A stretch of DNA of 64,000 bases from a bacterium (GCA_031401035.1 JANNRA010000112.1:2628-66627); one strand, 5' to 3'; positions 35,750-47,359 are shown, numbered from the stretch's first letter. A program made the numbers and translations. The notes: generated from the sequence alone by a model not told the origin.

Positions 35750-35825
35750 GGTCGGAAAACTGCATGAGAGCAGGGGCCGGAAACTGCCATTGCCCAGGGG
35801 CGAAAATTAGGCGAAAACCTCCCCC

Positions 35826-36566
35826 GTGGCTGCCACTGCACGGGAACGACTCGCCGCCCTGGACCTGCCGGGGACGGTGCGCTTCGGCGCGCCGACCGCC
35901 GACGCGGTGCGCCGCCTGCCGGTGGGCATCGCGGCGCTCGACGCGCTGCTCGGCGGCGGCCTGCCGCGCGGCTACCTGAGCGAGCTGGTCGGCGGCCGCG
36001 CCAGCGGCCGCACGGCGGTGCTGTACGCGCTGCTGGCGGCGACGACGCGCGCCGGCGAGGTGGCGGCGGTGGTCGACCTGCCCGACGCGCTCGATCCCGC
36101 CAGCCTGGCGCGCGCCGGGGTGCAGCTCGAGCGCGTGCTGTGGGTACGCCCGCCGGCGCCGCGCGCCGCCCTGCAATGCGCCGAGTTGATCCTCGCCGCC
36201 GGCGGCTTCGCGCTCGTCGCGCTCGACCTCGACGGGCCGCCGGCGCGCCTGTCGCGCGCCGCCTGGCCGCGCCTCGCCCAGGCGGCGCGGCGCGCCGGCG
36301 CGGTCTGTGTCGTCAGCGGCGCGCAGCGCCGCGCCGAGGGCGCCGCGGCGCTGGCGCTGCAGCTCGACGCGCGCCGCGTGCACTGGAGCGCGCACCTGCT
36401 CGACGGCCTCGCCGCCACCGCGACGCTGACGCGCAGCCGCTTCGGCGCGGCGGGGCAGGTGGCGACGATCGTCGTCGGCGAGGAACTATCGACGTTCAAC
36501 GCGCACCTCTCCGTCGCCCGCAAGCAGATGCAGCTCCCCTCTCCCGCCGGGAGAGGGTCAGGGTGA
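35826..36566 (+). CDS. imuA: SOS mutagenesis protein ImuA (inactive RecA-fold)
   Basis: GTG start. A RecA-like Walker-A region (LSELVGGRASGRTAV) is present. It is the first gene of the imuA-imuB-dnaE2 cassette. Its last codons and stop are encoded by a GGGAGAGGGTCAGGGTGAGGGG hairpin repeat. Confidence 0.75.
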   Translation: MAATARERLAALDLPGTVRFGAPTADAVRRLPVGIAALDALLGGGLPRGYLSELVGGRASGRTAVLYALLAATTRAGEVAAVVDLPDALDPASLARAGVQLERVLWVRPPAPRAALQCAELILAAGGFALVALDLDGPPARLSRAAWPRLAQAARRAGAVCVVSGAQRRAEGAAALALQLDARRVHWSAHLLDGLAATATLTRSRFGAAGQVATIVVGEELSTFNAHLSVARKQMQLPSPAGRGSG

Positions 36567-36635: not shown

Positions 36636-38111
36636 GTGCGCCTCGCCTGTCTGTACGTGCCGGTGTTCCCGCTCGCCGCCTGGCTGCGCGCCGAGCCGGA
36701 GTTGCGCGGTACGCCGCTGGCCGTCGCCGACGGCGCCTCGCCGCGGGCGCGGCTGGTCGCCTGCTCGCCGGAGGCGGGGCGGCGCGGCGTCGCGCCGGGG
36801 CTGACGGCGGCGCAGGCGGCGGCGATCGCCGGCGACCTGGTGTTGCGGCCGGCCTCGCCCGACGCCGAGCGCGCCGCGCACGCGGCGCTGGCCGACGTGG
36901 CGTACTCGTTCTCACCGCGCGTCGAGGACGGCGCTCCGGGCACGGTGTACTTCGACGCCGACGGCCTGCACGAGCTCTACCCGAGCGAGCCGGCGCTGGC
37001 GCAGGCGGCGCTGCGCCGCGCCGCCGCGCTCGGGCTCGATGCCGCGATCGGCATCGCCGGCAGCAAGATCGCCGCCGAGCTGGCGGCGCGCGATGGCGGC
37101 GGCTGCGCGGTGGTGCCGCCGCACGAGGAGTGGCGGCTGCTGGCACCGCTGTCGCTCGATCGGCTGCAGCCCGCTCCGGCGCTGCGCGAGACGCTGAGCC
37201 GCTGGGGTATCCGCACGCTCGGCGATCTCGCCGCGCTGCCGGCGAGCGGGTTGGCGGCGCGGCTCGGTCCGGAGGCGGCGGCGCTGGCGCGACGGGCGCG
37301 CGGCGAGGACGCGCACCCGTTGGCGCCGCGGCCGCTGCCGCTGCAGTTCGAGGAGGCGGCGGCGCTCGACTGGGGTGTCGACGCGCTGGAGCCGTTCCTG
37401 TTCGTTGTGCGCGGCCTGCTCGACCGCCTGACGGCGCGTCTCGAGGTGCGCGGCCTGGTGTGCGGCGACCTGCGCCTGTCGCTCGGCCTGGTCGACCGCG
37501 GCCGCGACGAGCGCACGGTGACGGTGGCGGCGCCGAGCACGGCGGTGAAGGCGCTGCTGACGCTGGTGCGCGTCCATCTCGAGACCCACCCGCCGCGCGC
37601 CGCCGTCGAGCACCTGCGCCTCGCCGCCGTACCCGAGCGTCTGCGCGCCGCGCAACTCGACCTTTTCCGCCCCGCCGGCCCGGCGCCGGCGCAGCTCGCC
37701 GCGACGCTGGCGCGCCTCGGCGCCCTGTGCGGCGCGGTGCCGGTCGGCATGCCGGTGGTGGCCGACTCGCACCGCCCCGACGCCTACGGCGTGGCACCGT
37801 TCGCGGCGCCGCCGGCGGCGGCGGCAGGAGCGGAGTCGCGGCCCGTGCCGCTCGCCATCCGCGCCGTGCGTCCGCCGCGTCGACTGGAGGTCTTCTGCCA
37901 GCGCGATCGTCCCGACTTCCTGCGCGCCGCCGGCTGCCAGGGCCGCGTCGTCTCTCTCGCCGGCCCCTGGCGCCTCGCCGGCGAGTGGTGGCGCCCCGAG
38001 GCGGTGCTGCAGCGCGACTACTACGACGCCCAGCTCAGCGACGGCGGCGTCTACCGGTTCTACTTCGACCGCGCCGCGCAGCAGTGGTTCCTCGATGGTG
38101 AGTACGACTGA
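36636..38111 (+). CDS. imuB: Y-family-polymerase-like ImuB
   Basis: GTG start with MRLACLYVPVFPLAAW (the typical ImuB N-terminus). The protein is 491 aa and the gene precedes dnaE2. Confidence 0.8.
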   Translation: MRLACLYVPVFPLAAWLRAEPELRGTPLAVADGASPRARLVACSPEAGRRGVAPGLTAAQAAAIAGDLVLRPASPDAERAAHAALADVAYSFSPRVEDGAPGTVYFDADGLHELYPSEPALAQAALRRAAALGLDAAIGIAGSKIAAELAARDGGGCAVVPPHEEWRLLAPLSLDRLQPAPALRETLSRWGIRTLGDLAALPASGLAARLGPEAAALARRARGEDAHPLAPRPLPLQFEEAAALDWGVDALEPFLFVVRGLLDRLTARLEVRGLVCGDLRLSLGLVDRGRDERTVTVAAPSTAVKALLTLVRVHLETHPPRAAVEHLRLAAVPERLRAAQLDLFRPAGPAPAQLAATLARLGALCGAVPVGMPVVADSHRPDAYGVAPFAAPPAAAAGAESRPVPLAIRAVRPPRRLEVFCQRDRPDFLRAAGCQGRVVSLAGPWRLAGEWWRPEAVLQRDYYDAQLSDGGVYRFYFDRAAQQWFLDGEYD

Positions 38112-38140: not shown

Positions 38141-38554
38141 ATGATGGACAGATTGGCGACGGAGGGAATCATTGCGGCGGCGATCGAGGTCCATCGGGCA
38201 CTGGGACCAGGATTGCTGGAGAGCATCTACGAAGAGTGTCTGGCGGAAGAGCTGTCGTTGCGAGGCATGGCGTACGAGCGACAGCGCGGGGTTCCCCTGG
38301 AGTACAAGGGGCGTCGCCTCGGAATCGATCTGCGTATCGATCTGCTCGTCGGTGACCGGGTGGTCGTCGAGTTGAAGGCGGTCGAGAAAATCCTGCCCAT
38401 CCACGCCGCCCAGGTCGTGACGTATCTCCGGCTGACCAACAAACCGTATGGATTGCTGATCAACTTCCACGTCCCGATGCTGAAAGAAGGCATTCGCCGC
38501 TATCTCAATCCCGTCCTTCTCCGTTCCTCCGTTGCTCCGTGTGAAAAGTCCTGA
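38141..38554 (+). CDS. GxxExxY family protein (PD-(D/E)XK_3), inserted between imuB and dnaE2
   Basis: MMDRLATEGI..GPGLLESIYEECL contains the GxxExxY motif. The 137-aa gene is lower in GC than its surroundings and is flanked by 30-bp inverted repeats. Confidence 0.8.
   Translation: MMDRLATEGIIAAAIEVHRALGPGLLESIYEECLAEELSLRGMAYERQRGVPLEYKGRRLGIDLRIDLLVGDRVVVELKAVEKILPIHAAQVVTYLRLTNKPYGLLINFHVPMLKEGIRRYLNPVLLRSSVAPCEKS
38519..38548. repeat. right inverted repeat flanking the GxxExxY gene; overlaps the dnaE2 start
   Basis: CTCCGTTCCTCCGTTGCTCCGTGTGAAAAG. A related motif also occurs at 36593-36627 immediately upstream of imuB. Confidence 0.75.
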
Positions 38555-41500
38555 CGACTACGTCGAGCTGCGCACGCGCAGTGCCTTCTCCTTCCTCGCC
38601 GGGGCGTCGTTGCCGGAGGATCTGGTGGCGCGGGCGGCGGCGCTCGATCACGGCGTCCTCGCCATGGGCGATCGCGACGGGGTGTACGGCGCGCCGCGCT
38701 TTCATCAGGCGGCGGTGAAGGCCGGCGTGCGCGGCATCGTCGGTTGCGAGCTGACGACGGTGGACGGGGCGCTGTACGTGCTGGTCGCCGAGCGGGTGGG
38801 ATATCGCAACCTCTGCCGGCTGCTCAGCGACGCCAAGCTGCGCGCGGCGAAGGGCGCGGCGGTGGTCGAGTGGAGCGATCTCGACGGGCGCAGCGACGGA
38901 CTGATCTGCCTGGCGCGGCAGCCGGCGGGGCTGGCGCGCCTGCAGCGCCTGTTCCCGGGGCGGCTCTACCTCGAGCTGCAGCGCCACCTCGACGCGGACG
39001 AGGAGCGGCACAATCGCGTCCTCGCCGCCGCCGCCGAACACCACCGCCTGCCGCTGGTGGCCACCAACGACGTGCGCCACGCGGCGCCGGACGGGCGGCC
39101 GCTGCTCGACGTGCTGACCTGCCTGCGCGAACACACGACGCTCGACGCCGCCGGCCGCCGCCTGCTCGCCAACGCCGAGCGCCATCTCAAGCCGGCGCGC
39201 GAGATGGCGGCGCTGTTCCGCGACCAGCCGGCGGCGCTGGCCAACACGCGCCGCATCGCCGAGCAGTGCGCCTTCGGGCTCGCCGACCTCGGCTACCGCT
39301 TCCCCGACTATCCGCTGTCGCCCGGCGAGACGGCCGACGGCCACCTGCGGGCGCTCACCGAGGCCGGCGCGCGCGGGCGCTACGGTGCGCTGACGCTGCG
39401 CGTGCGGCGCCAGCTCGAGCACGAGCTGGCGGTGATCGCGCAGCTCGGGCTGGCCGGCTACTTCCTCATCGTCTGGGACATCGTGCGCTACTGCCGCGAG
39501 GCCGGGATCCTGGCGCAGGGGCGCGGCTCGGCGGCCAACTCGGCGGTCTGCTACGCGCTCGGCATCACCGCCGTCGACCCGATCGGCATGGAACTGCTCT
39601 TCGAGCGCTTCCTGTCGCCGGAGCGCGGCGAGTGGCCGGACATCGACATCGACCTGCCGAGCGGCGAGCGGCGCGAGCGGGTCATCCAGTACGTCTACCA
39701 GCGCTACGGCCCGCGCGGCGCGGCGATGACCGCCAACGTCATCACCTACCGCACGCGCAGCGCCGTGCGCGAGGTCGGCAAGGCGCTGGGGTTCGCCGAG
39801 GCGCAGGTGGCGCGGTTGTCGAAGCTGCTGCACCGCTTCGAGTTCCGCGACGACCTCGACCAGCTGGCGGAGCAGTTGCGGGCCGGCGGCGTCGACCCCG
39901 CCGCGCCGCGCGTGCGCCTGTTGGTCGATCTCGTCGCGCGCATCCAGAACCTGCCGCGCCATCTCGGCCAGCACTCCGGCGGCATGGTCATCGCGGCCGG
40001 GCGGCTCGACGAGGTGGTGCCGCTCGAGCCGGCGGCGATGCCGGGGCGGGTGGTGGTGCAGTGGGACAAGGACGACTGCGCCGATCTCGGCATCATCAAG
40101 GTCGACCTGCTCGGCCTCGGCATGATGGCGGTGCTGGAGGACACCCTACCGCTGATCCGCGTGCACGAGGGGGTCGAGGTGGACCTCGCCCGCCTGCCGG
40201 CCGACGACCCGGCGACCTACGCCATGCTGCGGCGCGCCGATACGATCGGCGTCTTCCAGGTCGAGAGCCGGGCGCAGATGGCGACGCTGCCGCGCCTGCG
40301 GCCGGAGCGCTTCTACGACCTGGTCGTCGAGGTGGCGCTGATCCGCCCCGGCCCGATCGTCGGGCAGATGGTGCACCCGTACCTGAACCGCCGCCGCGGC
40401 CGCGAGGCGGTGACGTACGCGCATCCCGACCTCGAGCCGATCCTGGCGCGCACGCTGGGCGTGCCGCTCTTCCAGGAGCAGCTGCTGCGCATGGCGATGG
40501 CGGTCGCCGACTTCAGCGGCGGCGAGGCCGAAGAGCTGCGCCGCGCCATGGGCTTCAAGCGCTCCACCGAGCGCATGCGCGAGATCGAGGCGCGCCTGGT
40601 CCGCGGCATGGCGGCACGCGGCATCGCCGCGGCGGCGCAGGACGGCATCATCACCAGCATCACCTCGTTCGCCCTCTACGGCTTCCCCGAGTCGCACGCC
40701 GCCAGCTTCGCGCTGCTCGCCTACGCCTCGGCGTACCTGCGCCGCCACCACCTCGCCGCCTTCACCTGCGCCATGCTCAACAACTGGCCGCTCGGCTTCT
40801 ACCACCCCGCCACCCTGGTGAAGGACGCCCAACGCCACGGCCTGCACATCCTGCCCGTCGACGTGACGATCTCACCCTGGAACTGCACCCTCGAACCGGC
40901 AGCCATGCAGGCGGCCGCCCAGAGTCCCCCAGCCGAAGGAAGGTGTGCAGATGCCCAGAGTCCCCCAGCCGGGACCGCGGGCGTCTCGCCCGCAGCCGAC
41001 GCCGGTTGGAGCAACCACCTCTCCCTCCGCCTCGGCCTGCGCTACGTCTCCGCCCTGCGCGCCGACACCGCCGCGCGCATCGAGTCCGCCCGCGCCGCCG
41101 CCCCCTTCGCCGACCTCACCGATCTCACCCACCGTGCCGCGCTGCGCGACGACGAACTACAGACCCTCGCCCACGCCGGCGCCTTCGCCCCCTTCGGCCT
41201 CACCCGCCGCGACGCCATGTGGCAGGCCGCCGCCGTCAGCCGCGATCCGCTCTTCGCCGGCGCCCGCGTCCGCGCGACCGCCGCGCCGCTCCCCGCCGCG
41301 CCGTTGCCCGAGATGACCACCGTCGACCGCACCCTCGCCGACTACACAACCCTCGGCCTCACCGCCGGCCCGCATCTGATGAAGTACCTGCGCCCGAGTC
41401 TCGACGCCCAGGGCGTGCTGCGCAGCCGCGATCTGGTGCGGGAGAAAAACGGCGCCTGGGTGAAGCTCGCCGGGCTGGTCATCGTCCGCCAGCGCCCCGG

Positions 41501-41807
41501 CACCGCCAAGGGCTTCTGCTTCCTCACCCTCGAGGACGAGACCGGCATCGGCAACGCCGTCGTCACGCCAGATCTGTTCCAGCGCCACCGCGCCGTCATC
41601 CACACCGCCGCGCTGCTGCTCGTCGAGGGCCCGCTGCAGGTCGTCGAGGGCGTCATCCATCTGCGCGCCCGCCGCTTCACGCCGCTGGCGCTGCCCGAAC
41701 AGGTCGTCACCCAGGCCGGACACGGCTACCGCATGCGCGTCACGCCGCAGGAGGAACCGCCGCCGGGGCTGCCGCCGAGGCTGCCGAAGTCGCACGATTT
41801 CCGCTGA
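38532..41807 (+). CDS. dnaE2: error-prone DNA polymerase DnaE2 (ImuC)
   Basis: The 1091-aa protein has an N-terminal PHP domain ([10 protein letters not shown]), the Pol III alpha core and an OB fold. The start is TTG at 38532 or GTG at 38541, with no obvious Shine-Dalgarno. Confidence 0.9.
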
Positions 41808-41824
41808 CCACACACGGAGGGTTC

Positions 41825-42992
<1,168 letters not shown>

Positions 42993-42997
<5 letters not shown>

Positions 42998-43018
42998 TCC
43001 GGATAAATGTAGTTAGCC
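42993..43018 (+). other. attI core with direct repeats GTTAGTCCGGATA and GTTAGCCGGATA; the recombination point is G(43012)|TT
   Basis: The first cassette begins TTAGCC at 43013. The attC1 inverse core GGCTAAC is the reverse complement of GTTAGCC. Confidence 0.7.
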
Positions 43019-43022
43019 GGAT

Positions 43023-43415
43023 ATGAAACGAGACGAGAAGACCTTGGCAGGATCCGATCTGTCTCCCATCGCAAAGGTCGTGCTTGGGCTGGCGCTCGGC
43101 GTGCCACTAACCTTCTCGTACGCAGCCCTATCGCTGGGCGGCGACACGGCCACGTGGTTGTCCAAGCTCCAGCGTCTGGTCCCCATTGCAGGCGTCGTCG
43201 CGTCGGCGGCCGTCGCTGCACTCTTCTGGAAGCGCGTTCCTGCGCTGCGGTTCGCGCCCGTCGCGTACGCTGTCCCTTTGGCCCTTTCCGTCACCGTCGA
43301 CACTGTGCAAGTAGACCTGCGAACGGTTGTGGAGGGTATTGCTGCCGGGTTGATCATCGGGTTCGGGATCATGTTCGCCATCTGGATCGAGACCAAGGAT
43401 GCGGCGACCGGCTAA
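43023..43415 (+). CDS. cassette 1: hypothetical membrane protein (130 aa, about 4 transmembrane helices)
   Basis: MKRDEKTLAGSDLSPIAKVVLGLALGVPL... Its stop TAA lies inside the attC1 inverse core. Confidence 0.7.
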   Translation: MKRDEKTLAGSDLSPIAKVVLGLALGVPLTFSYAALSLGGDTATWLSKLQRLVPIAGVVASAAVAALFWKRVPALRFAPVAYAVPLALSVTVDTVQVDLRTVVEGIAAGLIIGFGIMFAIWIETKDAATG

Positions 43416-43508
43416 CATGGCGCTGCAGCCGACGCGGGCCACGAGGCCGAACGAGCAACGGGAGCCCGCGCGTGTCGGCCCGCGCGGCTGAGCGCCAAGC
43501 CGTTATCC
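43410..43508 (+). other. attC1 (99 bp): R'' GGCTAAC, R' GTTATCC
   Basis: Inner repeats GCAGCCGACGCGGGCC and GGCCCGCGCGGCTG. R'' is complementary to the cassette 1 opening TTAGCC. Confidence 0.8.
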
Positions 43509-43514
43509 AGACAG

Positions 43515-43856
43515 ATGAAGCTACCCGGGGCAGGTGCGGCGACGATCGATCCAGCGAAGGTCCGGGACTATCTGCTCTCCGAGACACATCCAGTGGGGCG
43601 TTTCAAAGCCTCGTTCTTCGCCAGCCTTGGCTATACGCCGGCCCGGTGGGACCTTCTCCGAAGCGATCTTCACGCGCTGGCCCTGCAGGAAGAGGCCGCG
43701 ACGGGCCTACGAAGTCCGTATGGCCAGAAATTCGAGGTCCGTGGTACCCTCTCCGGGCCGAATGGGCGAAGCGCATCGGTGGCGACGGTCTGGATCATTT
43801 TACAGGGCGAGAGTTCGCCACGTTTTGTAACGGCATTTCCGGGAGTAAAGACATGA
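43515..43856 (+). CDS. cassette 2, gene A: uncharacterized 113-aa protein, putative partner of the DUF4926 gene
   Basis: MKLPGAGAATIDPAKVRDYLLSETHPVGRFKASFF... Its stop overlaps the next ATG (ATGA). Confidence 0.6.
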   Translation: MKLPGAGAATIDPAKVRDYLLSETHPVGRFKASFFASLGYTPARWDLLRSDLHALALQEEAATGLRSPYGQKFEVRGTLSGPNGRSASVATVWIILQGESSPRFVTAFPGVKT

Positions 43857-44077
43857 CCTTCAAGATGCTCGACACCGTCGTGCTGGCAAGGGACCTTGCC
43901 GACAATGGTCTTCGTGCGGGTGACCTTGGCGCGGTGGTTGAAATCTACGAACCGGACGGCTTGGAGGTTGAATTCGTCACTGCATCTGGCAAGACCCAAG
44001 CACTGGTCACGTTGAGCGTCTCAGATGTTCGCCAAGTGCAGGACAGCGATCTCGTTTCAGTTCGTTCCGTCGCTTAG
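43853..44077 (+). CDS. cassette 2, gene B: DUF4926-like small protein (74 aa)
   Basis: MTFKMLDTVVLARDLADNGLRAGDLGAVVEIYEPDGLEVEFVTASGKTQALVTLSVSDVRQV matches the DUF4926 pattern. Confidence 0.65.
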   Translation: MTFKMLDTVVLARDLADNGLRAGDLGAVVEIYEPDGLEVEFVTASGKTQALVTLSVSDVRQVQDSDLVSVRSVA

Positions 44078-44097
44078 GTCGTGTTCGCCAGACCACT

Positions 44098-44154
44098 GGA
44101 TAACAAGCGCGTGCAGCCGACGGCCTCCGGCCGCGGCTGACGCGCACGTTCGGC
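44098..44154 (+). other. attC2 (57 bp): R'' GGATAAC, R' GTTCGGC
   Basis: R'' is the reverse complement of GTTATCC; the cassette opens TTATCC at 43503. Inner repeats GCAGCCGACGGCC and GGCCGCGGCTG. Confidence 0.8.
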
Positions 44155-44169
44155 TGCGTCGAGCGATCG

Positions 44170-44472
44170 TTGATTCCGATCCCAATGCGAGATTCAACAC
44201 GCGCCCAATGGCGTCAGATCGGACGGTTCTACTTCTGGGCGGCACTGGCGACGGGAGTTCTGTCGGTCGCGCTGTCGCTGGGACTGTGGAGATCCTGGAT
44301 CGCGGCCGCGTGGCTCGAGGCAGTTATCGCGCTGCCGCTGATCACTGCCGGTGTTATTCTCATCTGGAGCGTGACGGCCTATCCACTCATGCTTCTTCTC
44401 GCGCTGCTTTTCGGCCGCCCGGGCAAGCCCACGGGACCCGGTGATCCGGATGGGCCGGGTGTGGTCGTGTGA
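44170..44472 (+). CDS. cassette 3: small hypothetical membrane protein (about 100 aa)
   Basis: ..FYFWAALATGVLSVALSLGLW..IALPLITAGVILIWSV.. The ORF is bounded by attC2 and attC3. Confidence 0.6.
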   Translation: MIPIPMRDSTRAQWRQIGRFYFWAALATGVLSVALSLGLWRSWIAAAWLEAVIALPLITAGVILIWSVTAYPLMLLLALLFGRPGKPTGPGDPDGPGVVV

Positions 44473-44505
44473 CGAAGTTTCCGTCGGAAATTCGCTCGCA
44501 ATCCA

Positions 44506-44569
44506 GCCGAACAAAGCGGTGCAGCCGACGCGGGCCTGCGGCCCGCGCGGCTGACCGCTGGCGTTCGGC
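44506..44569 (+). other. attC3 (64 bp): R'' GCCGAAC, R' GTTCGGC, a perfect inverse pair
   Basis: GCCGAACaaagcggtGCAGCCGACGCGGGCCtgcGGCCCGCGCGGCTGaccgctggcGTTCGGC. Confidence 0.85.
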
Positions 44570-44593
44570 TTTCCGCAGGTCTTCGGGTAGACG

Positions 44594-44863
44594 TTGACCG
44601 TGGCCAAGCGCGACACTCTTCTCGTCCAAGTCCTGAGCGGCACGGCGGATGCGAACGTCCCCTTCGACGGGCTGCGCCGACTGCTCGGCCGCCTCGGATT
44701 CGACGAGCGGATCCGCGGCAGTCATCACATTTTCACCAAGACCGGAATCGTGGAAATCCTGAATCTGCAGCCCAAGGGCCGTGACGCGAAGGCATATCAA
44801 GTCAAGCAGGTGCGGGTTGTGATCGTGAAGTATCGGTTGGCGGGAGGAGCCAATGGCCAGTAA
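44594..44863 (+). CDS. hicA: cassette 4: HicA-family mRNA interferase toxin
   Basis: ..RGSHHIFTKTGIVEILNLQPKGRDAKAYQVKQVR.. is the HicA signature. The start is TTG at 44594 or GTG at 44600. Confidence 0.75.
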   Translation: MTVAKRDTLLVQVLSGTADANVPFDGLRRLLGRLGFDERIRGSHHIFTKTGIVEILNLQPKGRDAKAYQVKQVRVVIVKYRLAGGANGQ

Positions 44864-45071
44864 GTGGAAGTACGAGATCATCATCTATTGGAGCGACGAG
44901 GATGAGGCCTACGTCGCCGAGGTGCCTGAGTTGCCGGGCTGCGCCGCCGACGGCACGACCTACAAGCAGGCCCTCGCCAACGCGGAGATCGTGATTCGCG
45001 AGTGGATCGAGACCGCGCGTGAACTAGGCCGACCGATCCCCGAGCCCAAAGGGCGCCTCCTGTATGCGTAA
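44853..45071 (+). CDS. hicB: cassette 4: HicB-family antitoxin
   Basis: MASKWKYEIIIYWSDEDEAYVAEVPELPGCAADGTTYKQALANAEIVIREWIE has the UPF0150/HicB fold pattern. It overlaps the hicA 3' end. Confidence 0.75.
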   Translation: MASKWKYEIIIYWSDEDEAYVAEVPELPGCAADGTTYKQALANAEIVIREWIETARELGRPIPEPKGRLLYA

Positions 45072-45074
45072 GGG

Positions 45075-45164
45075 GCCGAACAAGGCGATCGACCCGCCCG
45101 GCCTGAGCGGCATCGCTCGCCGCGCAGCAGCCTGCGCCGGCGGGTCATCGCCAGCGCGTTAGGC
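45075..45164 (+). other. attC4 (90 bp): R'' GCCGAAC, R' GTTAGGC (canonical)
   Basis: R'' is complementary to the cassette 4 opening TTCGGC at 44564. R' is GTTAGGC at 45158-45164. Confidence 0.8.
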
Positions 45165-45200
45165 CGCTATCCCGCACCATCACCTCGCGGTGACCAGACG

Positions 45201-46949
45201 ATGAAGATGACAATGAGAGCACTGGCTTGCGCGCTGCTGACCGGAGCTATGGCGACCGCCGTCACGGCGCAGGAGGAGCGCGGTGCGATCACCGTCTTCA
45301 TTGCGAAGAAGATCGTCACCATGGATCCGACTCGGCCCACAGCCACAGCGGTCGCCGTCCGCAATGGCACCATTCTTGGCGTAGGTTCGCTCAAGGACCT
45401 TGCGCCCTGGCTCACGACGGCCAAGTACACCGTCAACGAAGAATTCAAGGAGCGGGTGCTGATGCCGGGCTTCATCGACCCGCATATGCACCCGATGCTC
45501 GCAGCCATCCAGTTCGGCACGACATGGATCACGCCCGAGCCGTGGGATGTGATGGGTGCAAAGATCCCCGCCACCATTGGACACGAAGCGTACCTGAGCG
45601 CCTTGAAGGCAGCGTTTGCCGCTGCCCCAAAGGCCGAGCCGATGTTCATCACATGGGGCTACAACCAGATGTTCCACGGTGACATGTCGCGTGCGCAACT
45701 GGATACCATCTCCAGCACCTATCCCATTTTCGTCTGGCACCGCTCGGCGCATGAGGCGTACTTCAATACGCCGATGCTCAAGTACCTGGAAGGTAAGGGA
45801 GTCACCGAAGCAGTGGTCAAAGGCAATCCTCAGATCAACTGGCAGAAGGGATACTTCTTCGAAGACGGCTTGTTCAAGGTTGCCGTACCTGCATTAGCCA
45901 ACTACCTGCTGGCACCCGCGCGCGTGGACATCGGCTATGCCAAAGCGCGCGATTACCTGAACTTCAACGGCATCACCACCGTAGCCGACATGAATACCGG
46001 CGGCGTCAGTTGGGACTTGGAGGTTGGAGCCCTGAAGCGCACATTTGATCGCAAGGACTCGCCGGTGCGCGTACGCCTGACCCCAGACGCCGTGGCGCTG
46101 GCCGCCGCCATGAAGAGCGCGGATGCGGCGTTTGCCTTCATTGGTAGAGCCGGTGAGAAGAACACTCGACACATCTTCACAAACGGGGCGATGAAGCTGT
46201 TTGCTGACGGGGCGATGTTCTCTCAACTGATGCAGCTATCGCCCCCTGGCTACATCGATGGGCATCAGGGTGCCTGGATCACGCAGCCCGCGCCGTTCGA
46301 GGAAGCCGCGCGCCGCTATTGGAATGCGGGCTATCAGATACATGTTCACACGAACGGTGACCACGGCGCGACGATGGTGCTCGACGTTCTCGAGAAACTC
46401 AAGGACGAAAAACCCCGAGCTGATCACCGCTTCACGATCGAACACTATGGCTATGCCACCGATGGCGTCAGTCGCAGGGTTGCGTTGCTCGGGGCGCTGG
46501 TCTCGGCTAATCCCTTCTACTTGTACGACCTCGGCGACAAATACGCCGAAGTGGGTTTGGGCGATGATCGAGCTGCGCGGATCACGCCGCTCGGCGGGCT
46601 CGCCCGTCGTGGAGTTCCTGTCGCGCTGCATTCGGACTTTGCGATGGCGCCTGCCGCGCCGCTCTTGCTTGCGTGGACGGCAATCACCCGCGAGACCCAG
46701 TCCGGCAAGGTGTTCGGACCCGAAGAGCGTTTGACGATGGATCAGGCCATGAAGGCGATCACCATCGACGCGGCCTACATCCTCCACCTGGAGGATCGCC
46801 TCGGCAGCATCGAGGCCGGAAAGCTGGCGGATTTCACCGTCCTCGATCAGGACCCCTACGCGGTCGGCGCGGCTGGGCTGCGCAACATCAAGGTCTGGGG
46901 CACGGTGTTTGAGGCCGCATCGCATCCCGCCAAAGCAAGCGCACCCTAA
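45201..46949 (+). CDS. cassette 5: secreted amidohydrolase-family (Amidohydro_3-like) metal-dependent hydrolase, 582 aa
   Basis: Signal peptide MKMTMRALACALLTGAMATAVTAQE. Motifs include PGFIDPHMHP, an HxH metal site, and later H..D motifs (HVHTNGDHG, HSDF). Confidence 0.75.
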   Translation: MKMTMRALACALLTGAMATAVTAQEERGAITVFIAKKIVTMDPTRPTATAVAVRNGTILGVGSLKDLAPWLTTAKYTVNEEFKERVLMPGFIDPHMHPMLAAIQFGTTWITPEPWDVMGAKIPATIGHEAYLSALKAAFAAAPKAEPMFITWGYNQMFHGDMSRAQLDTISSTYPIFVWHRSAHEAYFNTPMLKYLEGKGVTEAVVKGNPQINWQKGYFFEDGLFKVAVPALANYLLAPARVDIGYAKARDYLNFNGITTVADMNTGGVSWDLEVGALKRTFDRKDSPVRVRLTPDAVALAAAMKSADAAFAFIGRAGEKNTRHIFTNGAMKLFADGAMFSQLMQLSPPGYIDGHQGAWITQPAPFEEAARRYWNAGYQIHVHTNGDHGATMVLDVLEKLKDEKPRADHRFTIEHYGYATDGVSRRVALLGALVSANPFYLYDLGDKYAEVGLGDDRAARITPLGGLARRGVPVALHSDFAMAPAAPLLLAWTAITRETQSGKVFGPEERLTMDQAMKAITIDAAYILHLEDRLGSIEAGKLADFTVLDQDPYAVGAAGLRNIKVWGTVFEAASHPAKASAP

Positions 46950-46976
46950 ACAGATGCTGTTCGATCCCTTGAAGCG

Positions 46977-47036
46977 GCCTAACAACGGCATGCAGCGGAC
47001 GACGCTTCGCGTCGCCGCTGATGCCGGGCGTTGGCC
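46977..47036 (+). other. attC5 (60 bp): R'' GCCTAAC, R' GTTGGCC; last recognisable attC
   Basis: R'' is complementary to the cassette 5 opening TTAGGC at 45159. Inner repeats GCAGCGGACGACG and CGTCGCCGCTG. Confidence 0.75.
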
Positions 47037-47050
47037 GAAGGAGCGTTGCG

Positions 47051-47346
47051 ATGATCAGGGACCGTGCCCCAGTGCCGATGCACGGAGTGCGGCGCCAGCT
47101 CGCAGCACAGGGCATCGGGTGGCACTGGCGGGAGGCGATCCATGCCATCGGCCAGAAGGACATCGGCGCGATCGCCGATGTCCTGGGACACAACCCGTTC
47201 CTGATGGGCGAGACGGCAACCGGGATCGACGCGGTTACGTGCGGCGTCCTGGCGAACATCGTGAACGTGCCCGTCGCGCGCCCCGTCAAGGATGCGGCGG
47301 TGCAGCGCAGGAATCTCGTCGATTTCATCGAGGGGGTGCGCGGTCG

Positions 47347-47359
<13 letters not shown>
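47051..47359 (+). CDS. hypothetical protein after the last attC (orphan or degenerate cassette)
   Basis: AAGGAG Shine-Dalgarno. MIRDRAPVPMHGVRRQLAAQGIGWH... (102 aa). No attC follows, and it overlaps the convergent BVMO gene by about 13 bp. Confidence 0.45.

Follow-up and report, generated by a model that had tools for sequence, protein, structure and literature searches.

Chromosomal integrons with an 'inverted integrase', of which that of Treponema denticola is an example, have the integrase gene intI and the gene cassettes transcribed in one direction and the attachment site attI at the 3′ end of intI. The name 'inverted integrase group' is used in PMC3575428. In SOS-controlled integrases such as Vibrio cholerae IntIA and the class 1 integrase IntI1, a LexA box lies in the intI promoter, intI is divergent from the cassettes, and the integrase is coupled to the DNA-damage response (PMC3108266). 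Outside the beta- and gamma-Proteobacteria, most soil/freshwater chromosomal integrons have lost this LexA control (Cambray et al., PMC3108266). Cassettes end in attC sites (59-base elements), which in class 1 and environmental integrons of the soil/freshwater type comprise an R box, a spacer, an L box, two bulges and a terminal loop; they are 57–141 bp long and need a 6-bp spacing of the bulges for efficient recombination (Nivina et al., PMC5027507). Among attC and attI sites conservation is limited to the AAC/GTT triplet, which itself tolerates changes (PMC5027507, PMC2811028, PMC10127599). Here we analysed a 64,000-nucleotide stretch of DNA from an uncultured bacterium (GCA_031401035.1, JANNRA010000112.1:2628-66627; G+C content 71.6%), referred to below as the window, which holds intI followed by five cassettes. 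This region is very probably a small chromosomal integron of the co-oriented type that uses the canonical integration mechanism. It resembles the inverted integrase group in transcriptional direction and in the place of attI, and it has the attC architecture, the G|TT crossover and the hybrid-core footprint of soil/freshwater-type sites.

Cassette boundaries and crossover cores

Under the canonical mechanism, IntI would recombine the double-stranded attI with the folded bottom strand of an attC hairpin, cleaving the bottom-strand AAC between A and C, a position equivalent to G|TT on the top strand. Cassettes would be inserted as circles at attI, each with TTNNNN at its start and G at its end. 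Because insertion would be circular, the R′ half of a cassette's own attC would include the six bases that open the cassette, and these would pair with the R″ at the other end; the seven bases after each attC hairpin would be a hybrid of two cassettes. We presume the direction and timing of the insertions from this same model.

The window agrees with these expectations. Each of the five R″ sites, when reverse-complemented, gives the core that opens its own cassette (Table 1), with identity at 20 of 20 variable positions, against 13 of 20 when R″ is compared with its own downstream core in the linear register. Of 720 possible assignments of R″ to core, two reach 20/20, and they differ by a swap of cassettes 3 and 4, whose cores are identical. 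Pairing continues beyond the 7-mer by 2, 2, 2, 0 and 4 bases in cassettes 1 to 5 (10 in total; about 2.1 expected by chance from base composition, P ~0.0015), which gives 9 bp in cassette 1 and 11 bp in cassette 5; in the linear register it extends by 0, 0, 1, 1 and 0 bases. In a crude control across the window, the 2 kb upstream of a bare NNNNAAC contained its reverse complement at a frequency of 0.15 per site. Since a match of the bare 7-mer is not rare, the significance rests on the exact register at successive attC sites.

Table 1 Features of the integron and of the genes upstream of it (positions counted from the first nucleotide of the window)
Feature	Position	Strand	Description
imuA	35826-36566	+	Pfam RecA-like domain
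imuB	36636-38111	+	Pfam IMS domain
dnaE2	38532-41807	+	dnaE2-type polymerase; directly upstream of intI
intI	41825-42997	+	integron integrase, 390 aa, intact; same orientation as the cassettes
attI simple site	42998-43018	+	conserved GGATAAA (L-box-like), TGTA spacer, GTTAGCC (putative R box)
Cassette 1	43013-43502 (490 bp)	+	hypothetical membrane protein, open reading frame (ORF) 43023-43415; attC1 43410-43508, 99 bp
Cassette 2	43503-44148 (646 bp)	+	DUF6883 ORF 43515-43856, overlapping DUF4926 ORF 43853-44077; attC2 44098-44154, 57 bp
Cassette 3	44149-44563 (415 bp)	+	hypothetical membrane protein ORF 44170-44472; attC3 44506-44569, 64 bp; start TTCGGC
Cassette 4	44564-45158 (595 bp)	+	HicA-like toxin ORF 44594-44863, HicB-like antitoxin ORF 44853-45071; attC4 45075-45164, 90 bp; start TTCGGC
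Cassette 5	45159-47030 (1872 bp)	+	Amidohydro_3 ORF 45201-46949; attC5 46977-47036, 60 bp; start TTAGGC
Array end	47031-47359	+	TTGGCC... into C-terminal fragment of a glutathione S-transferase (GST)-like gene; GST_C_6
Crossover cores	43012, 43502, 44148, 44563, 45158, 47030		GTTAGCC (attI), GTTATCC, GTTCGGC, GTTCGGC, GTTAGGC, GTTGGCC
R″ sites	43410, 44098, 44506, 45075, 46977		GGCTAAC, GGATAAC, GCCGAAC, GCCGAAC, GCCTAAC

Homologous cassettes in other arrays have the same boundaries. One metagenome contig (L125) has a 72% identical homologue of cassette 2, whose alignment starts with the T that follows G297 (G297|T298); this homologue opens with TTATCC and closes with the R″ GGATAAC. The homologue of the HicAB cassette in an array labelled Terriglobia (L035) has TTAGAC at its start and GTCTAAC at its end, so that its R box has covaried. 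More broadly, 48 of 57 adjacent pairs of the metagenome arrays have an R″ that exactly fits the upstream core; in the 49 informative pairs it fits the upstream core in 41 and its own core in 3, all counted among the matches listed. In the genome loci R″ equals the upstream core in 22 of 37 pairs, a count that includes loci where some intervening sites were missed. The attC of the cassette 2 homologue (892-954 in L125) ends in GGTAGGC rather than GTTAGGC, which is either a triplet variant or a sequencing error.

The first-pass annotation of this DNA had claimed that each R″ is the reverse complement of G plus the six bases opening its cassette, had read this as the footprint that circular cassettes leave on integration at G|TT, and had asked for a genome-wide control against other intergenic palindromes. 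All 7-mers were found where it had placed them, and the register, the homologues in L125 and L035 and the seven attI loci described below bear out the footprint. The control, run on the 64 kb, returned no other attC-like site and showed that the 7-mer alone is weak and the register specific. Complementarity of this kind between R″ and cassette start is the standard, textbook mark of an integron cassette.

The same annotation had presented GTTCGGC as an atypical core departing from GTTRRRY. Two cores do have C at position 4 and lie outside the consensus, but they are not the only ones: GTTAGCC, GTTATCC and GTTGGCC deviate too, and only GTTAGGC fits. Five of the six cores of the window are thus off RRRY at the variable R-box positions, in which they differ from the sites of the soil/freshwater type. 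We examined how common such cores are in an attC collection made from the IntI neighbourhoods of 80 representative genomes and one assembly locus obtained by exact-protein look-up (81 loci). A search model iterated on 85 diverse hits found 122 sites in 35 loci. The strict consensus fits 66 of these 122 cores (54%) and the other 46% deviate; position 4 of R′ is A in 97, G in 16, C in 8 and T in 1, and the position 4 implied by R″ is A in 94, C in 14 and G in 14. We also drew a metagenome sample that was chosen on the arm motif only and was therefore blind to the R box. Among the matches listed, its 146 sites have A in 104, G in 24, C in 17 and T in 1 at position 4 of R′, and R″ implies C in 20.

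In all, C occupies position 4 in 7–12% of ~270 environmental attC sites, a frequency close to that of G, a base that fits the consensus. Among the metagenome matches listed, GTTCGGC ranks sixth of the cores by frequency and occurs in 16 contigs; GTTC cores are also found in four genome loci of different phyla. When a detectable cassette comes after a GTTC core, the R″ downstream has the matching GxxGAAC in 3 of 4 cases among the listed metagenome matches, and such matching pairs also occur in a Proteobacteria array (L020) and an Acidiferrales array (L006). Outside the window, too, GTTCGGC behaves as a true crossover. The core flagged as atypical is therefore a common minority variant. An origin by sequence error or decay was considered and rejected, since other arrays have the variant too and in the window it stands in four mutually consistent places (two R′ and two R″). 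The C at position 4 in the cores of cassettes 3 and 4 is simply a swap of A.T for C.G within the R-box helix. Because the swap keeps the pairing, and recognition is mainly by structure and by the AAC/GTT triplet, no special feature of the enzyme would be required. GTTRRRY is a tendency and not a requirement (PMC5027507, PMC2811028), and because nearly half of the environmental cores break it, it is unfit as a filter.

The core deviations bear on whether the integron is a fossil, that is, an array of genuine attC sites in an inactive element, with GTTCGGC, GTTATCC and GTTGGCC as products of decay from GTTRRRY. The array is short, all but one of its cores are off the strict consensus, it ends against a truncated GST gene, and chromosomal intI genes are often inactivated according to Cambray et al. 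(PMC3108266). We nevertheless regard decay as quite unlikely. The intI reading frame is full-length and uninterrupted by frameshifts or early stops, and its score exceeds the family cutoff by a wide margin. Each deviation is mirrored in its partner R″ across the 20 variable positions, which is not the product of random decay, and 46% of the cores in other arrays deviate too. Relatives of the same IntI clade have wholly different cassettes at the same attI, which indicates cassette turnover since their divergence. From these sequence features we infer that the element may currently be active in recombination.

Structure, uniqueness and arm sequences of the attC sites

All five attC sites share one fold on either strand, consisting of the R box, a short unpaired spacer, 6 bp, a bulge, 6 bp, a second bulge and a variable terminal stem-loop, and all five lengths lie within the published range. 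They have the hairpin features described for attC sites (PMC5027507). The bottom-strand bulges are C and T in attC1, 2, 3 and 5 and both G in attC4. The bottom strand of attC3 folds at -36.2 kcal/mol (z -7.7). Folding energies of the top and bottom strands are nearly equal and hence uninformative on strand choice. The sites were aligned with trimmed loops, since attC1 and attC4 have long terminal structures that scramble a full-site MAFFT alignment. Across 130 distinct related sites, compensatory changes were found in 14 of 14 pairs of the L box and stem, and 88.9% of the cells are paired, against 26–40% with slid partners.

The sites are also unique in the window. When a covariance model was scored at every position on both strands of the 64 kb, the five sites scored 25–79 bits and the next best 18 bits. 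A broader model, R2, gave 54.2 bits for attC1 and 68.7 bits for attC3; at E<0.001 it returned no attC site in the 64 kb other than these five, at exactly the coordinates of the first-pass annotation. An Rfam scan of positions 40–50 kb at E<=1 gave no family match.

Generic intergenic palindromes such as terminators or repetitive extragenic palindrome (REP)-like elements, with a coincidental AAC/GTT complementarity, might be expected in a genome of this G+C content, which is full of GC-rich hairpins and of chance 7-mer complements at the frequency given above, and all five hairpins do stand 3′ of ORFs, where terminators would sit; we consider this explanation practically untenable, and refuted for the available 64 kb, as the hairpins directly follow a bona fide intI, none is followed by a T-run or coincides with a terminator-like hit, nothing similar occurs elsewhere in the window, two bulges exactly 6 bp apart on the same arm are common to the sites, the complementarity is register-specific and runs 10 bases beyond the cores, and homologous sites occur only in cassette arrays beside intI, at 35 other loci.

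Several observations weigh against the interpretation as an integron with canonical attC sites and a canonical mechanism. The bottom-strand bulge proximal to the R box is C in four sites and not the usual G (PMC5027507), a difference from soil/freshwater-type attC. In 129 environmental sites the proximal top-strand base is G in 66 and C in 51, so that a bottom-strand C is as frequent as G. The unpaired spacer measures 2 nt against 2–5 nt, which is shorter than the 5–6 nt of mobile-integron attC sites; three extra base pairs shorten it relative to the soil/freshwater type. The covariance models were seeded from the five sites of the window, so the variant-core frequencies given above carry some ascertainment bias; at position 4 the second model has mostly A, and the metagenome sample was chosen by its arms alone. 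Finally, no sigma-70-like site was found near attI for a cassette promoter Pc, which in integrons drives the promoterless cassettes; the scan for promoters and terminators gave nothing above the expectation from shuffled sequence, and the sigma-70 consensus that it used may not fit this host. Even with these points, we hold to a small co-oriented chromosomal integron.

The L″/L′ arms had been described as strongly conserved and as a sign of one lineage-specific attC family. Conservation is real but incomplete: the motif GCAGCCGACG...CGGCTG is exact in attC1–3 and compensated in attC5, where a C>G/G>C pair gives GCAGCGGACG with CCGCTG, and it is absent from attC4, whose arms are GATCGACCCGCC...GGCGGGTCATC. 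As for the lineage, the arms follow a general consensus found across phyla. They match 17–20 of 23 positions, where the register holds, of the attC consensus behind the degenerate primers HS286/HS287 of Stokes et al. 2001 (GCSGCTKANCTCVRRCGTTAGSC / TCSGCTKGARCGAMTTGTTAGVC; sequences from PMC2669170). The pattern TGCAGCCGACG...CGCGGCTGA occurs in at least 120 metagenome contigs, with 114 different terminal sequences among the matches listed, and near-identical arms are present in arrays labelled Acidobacteria, Gammaproteobacteria, Cyanobacteria and others. What is confined to the same IntI clade is near-identity of the whole site. The terminal stem CGCGGGCC-TGC-GGCCCGCG of attC1 and attC3 recurs elsewhere only in locus L081 and, nearly, in L206, and both of these arrays adjoin an IntI of the window's own clade; the three attC sites of L081 are 95–98% identical to attC3. 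In sedentary chromosomal integrons the location is stable within a lineage and the attC sites of one array are much alike; homogeneity of the window's array is mixed, with attC1–3 and the L081 sites near-identical, attC4 different and attC5 diverged, in an array of five cassettes only.

The integrase gene, attI and the cassette contents

The predicted IntI matches the TIGR02249 profile with 439.7 bits (cutoff 265) over model positions 1–315 of 315 and contains the domains Phage_int_SAM_4 and Phage_integrase. The protein is a tyrosine recombinase of the IntI subfamily, and the motif of the IntI-specific additional domain is seen in its translation. A 390-aa protein of a public collection (P0001) is 100% identical to it, and its closest named relatives come from metagenome-assembled genomes (MAGs) labelled Candidatus Binatia or Deltaproteobacteria.

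The layout is not that of the classical divergent platform, as intI shares the + strand with all five cassettes and attI comes after the stop codon of intI. Among the 35 related loci with detectable attC sites, 13 are co-oriented in this way and 22 have the classical divergent layout; the window thus has the known 'inverted integrase' arrangement (PMC3575428). It differs from the integrons of that group in that its attI starts within ~15 nt of the intI stop codon, in the GTTA-containing repeats within a conserved C-terminal coding extension, and in the position of intI as the final gene of an imuA-imuB-dnaE2 cluster. In the searchable literature we found no description of an attI this close to the intI stop combined with GTTA repeats in a coding extension.

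The attI site adjoins intI, and the first cassette is joined to it at G|TT, between G43012 and T43013. Its L and R boxes are putatively assigned by analogy with the attI sites in PMC12614218. Comparison with seven homologous loci (IntI 75–80% identical) located the crossover independently of the attC sites: in the alignment, the end of intI is collinear through ...CCGTTAGTCYGGATAAWTGTAGTT, the collinear stretch ends at ...GGATAAWTGTAGTT, and the sequences are unrelated past TGTAG|TT. Contig L001 terminates exactly at GTAGTTAG.

At its C-terminus the IntI of the window is extended by ~55 aa, a feature conserved within its clade. In the seven loci the DNA encoding this extension holds strongly conserved blocks, CGCCCGTTATSCCGCC, GGCGGCTATGCC and CCCGTTATCCCGCC followed by CCGTTAGTCYGGATAAWTGTAGTT, and the intI stop codon lies inside the last conserved block (CCGTTAG), 15 nt before the crossover. 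Conserved CCGTTAT/GCTATGCC repeats were seen in this DNA in the window (42830-43018). The attI1 site has GTTA-containing direct repeats. By analogy, the repeats in the IntI-tail DNA may be accessory IntI-binding sites that overlap the coding sequence, a suggestion to be read with the fact that seven sequences do not separate constraint on the DNA from constraint on the protein.

None of the cassettes contains a resistance gene, in which they differ from those of class 1 and environmental integrons. In cassette 2 the Pfam E-values are 9e-31 for DUF6883 and 7e-19 for DUF4926. In cassette 4 the HicA_toxin match (26.4) is slightly below the gathering score of 27, and HicB_lk_antitox scores 42 bits. 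The Amidohydro_3 protein of cassette 5 (E-value 7e-58) has an N-terminus that looks like a signal peptide, judged by eye from the translation. The DUF6883/DUF4926 pair (43515-44077) and the HicA/HicB pair (44594-45071) are overlapping two-gene modules with a toxin-antitoxin-like look, and both recur as cassettes in unrelated arrays (L125, L192, L035). As intI and the cassettes are co-oriented, read-through into the cassettes from intI or the dnaE2 operon is possible.

After attC5, the TTGGCC... that follows the last crossover would be, under the standard integration model, the remnant right half of the ancestral attI. It leads into a fragment (47021-47359) with the C-terminal ~90 residues of a GST-like protein (NCBIfam GST model positions 149–236 of 238), whose N-terminal part was not searched for; a convergent gene comes next. 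As only the C-terminal piece stands after attC5, the array abuts a truncated gene. We considered and rejected a sixth cassette at this place, since there is no downstream attC and the ORF is the truncated GST C-terminal domain.

The imuA-imuB-dnaE2 neighbourhood of intI

Directly upstream of intI lies a cluster of SOS mutagenesis genes. The start of intI is 17 nt past the dnaE2 stop codon, with a GGAGG ribosome-binding site 5 nt before the ATG, and imuA, imuB and an MFS transporter gene are found further upstream. Across its clade intI keeps this location, and 8 contigs show dnaE2-intI synteny. The full order imuA-imuB-dnaE2-intI, with all genes co-oriented, is present in L081 (3426-11101) and L002 (3135-11062); dnaE2 is followed by intI after 14–28 nt in L202, L203 and L204 and directly precedes intI in L001. 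We found no lexA in the window. In the searchable literature we also found no paper describing a linkage of intI to imuA, imuB, dnaE2 or lexA.

Upstream of the cluster, ~10 nt before the imuA start, stands the A/T-rich 17-mer GGCGAAAATTAGGCGAA (35799-35815), which contains the direct repeat GCGAA-N6-GCGAA. It is invariant in the window, L081 (3400-3416) and L002 (3104-3120), three loci in which the surrounding sequence has diverged. The window has no second copy of its 16-nt core, and we regard the 17-mer as a possible operator or promoter element. As a repeated operator, GCGAA-N6-GCGAA was rejected: the window holds one exact copy, and matches with one mismatch are below chance.

Other uncultured lineages also have intI after SOS genes on one strand, in different combinations. 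A Candidatus Eisenbacteria MAG has lexA-imuA-imuB-intI on the same strand (L014, 296-4414), and a Deltaproteobacteria MAG has lexA directly before intI on the same strand (L009, 1145-2923). In an Acidiferrales MAG the C-terminal end of imuB directly precedes intI (L006, 3-1594). A further delta MAG (L019, 320-10978) has lexA near intI, imuA-imuB ~1.7 kb before intI and attC hits upstream of imuA, and in L004 (9109-10984) a weak LexA N-terminal domain match lies before intI. The loci linking intI with SOS genes among the 81 are not all phylogenetically independent.

The dnaE2 gene itself varies (L081 8968-9440, L002 9019-9497, L203 895-4557). The DnaE2 ORF is 1219–1220 aa in L081, L002 and L203, ~130 aa longer than the 1091 aa of the window. 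The additional stretch falls between residues 908 and 927, and in L081 a PF05635 gene (23S rRNA IVP / four-helix bundle) was called within it in another reading frame.

Gene order tentatively suggests that the intI of this clade could be the last gene of a damage-inducible mutasome operon. One stress-induced transcript could then give error-prone replication, cassette shuffling and possibly cassette expression. The locus would be like the SOS-controlled integrases in having an integrase coupled to the DNA-damage response, as its position beside SOS mutagenesis genes suggests; it would differ from them in the route, which here would be membership in an operon.

For integron biology, the match between R″ and cassette start, together with a few extra bases, allows cassette boundaries to be fixed reliably from sequence alone, both here and in unrelated arrays. 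The link in gene order between intI and SOS mutagenesis may be the more interesting part of this locus, more so than the GTTCGGC core. If true, it would mean SOS control of integrons outside the Proteobacteria without a LexA box at intI, and two 'evolvability' systems joined in one transcription unit. It could then explain a coupling of integrases to stress in non-proteobacterial soil lineages, in which earlier surveys saw no LexA control.

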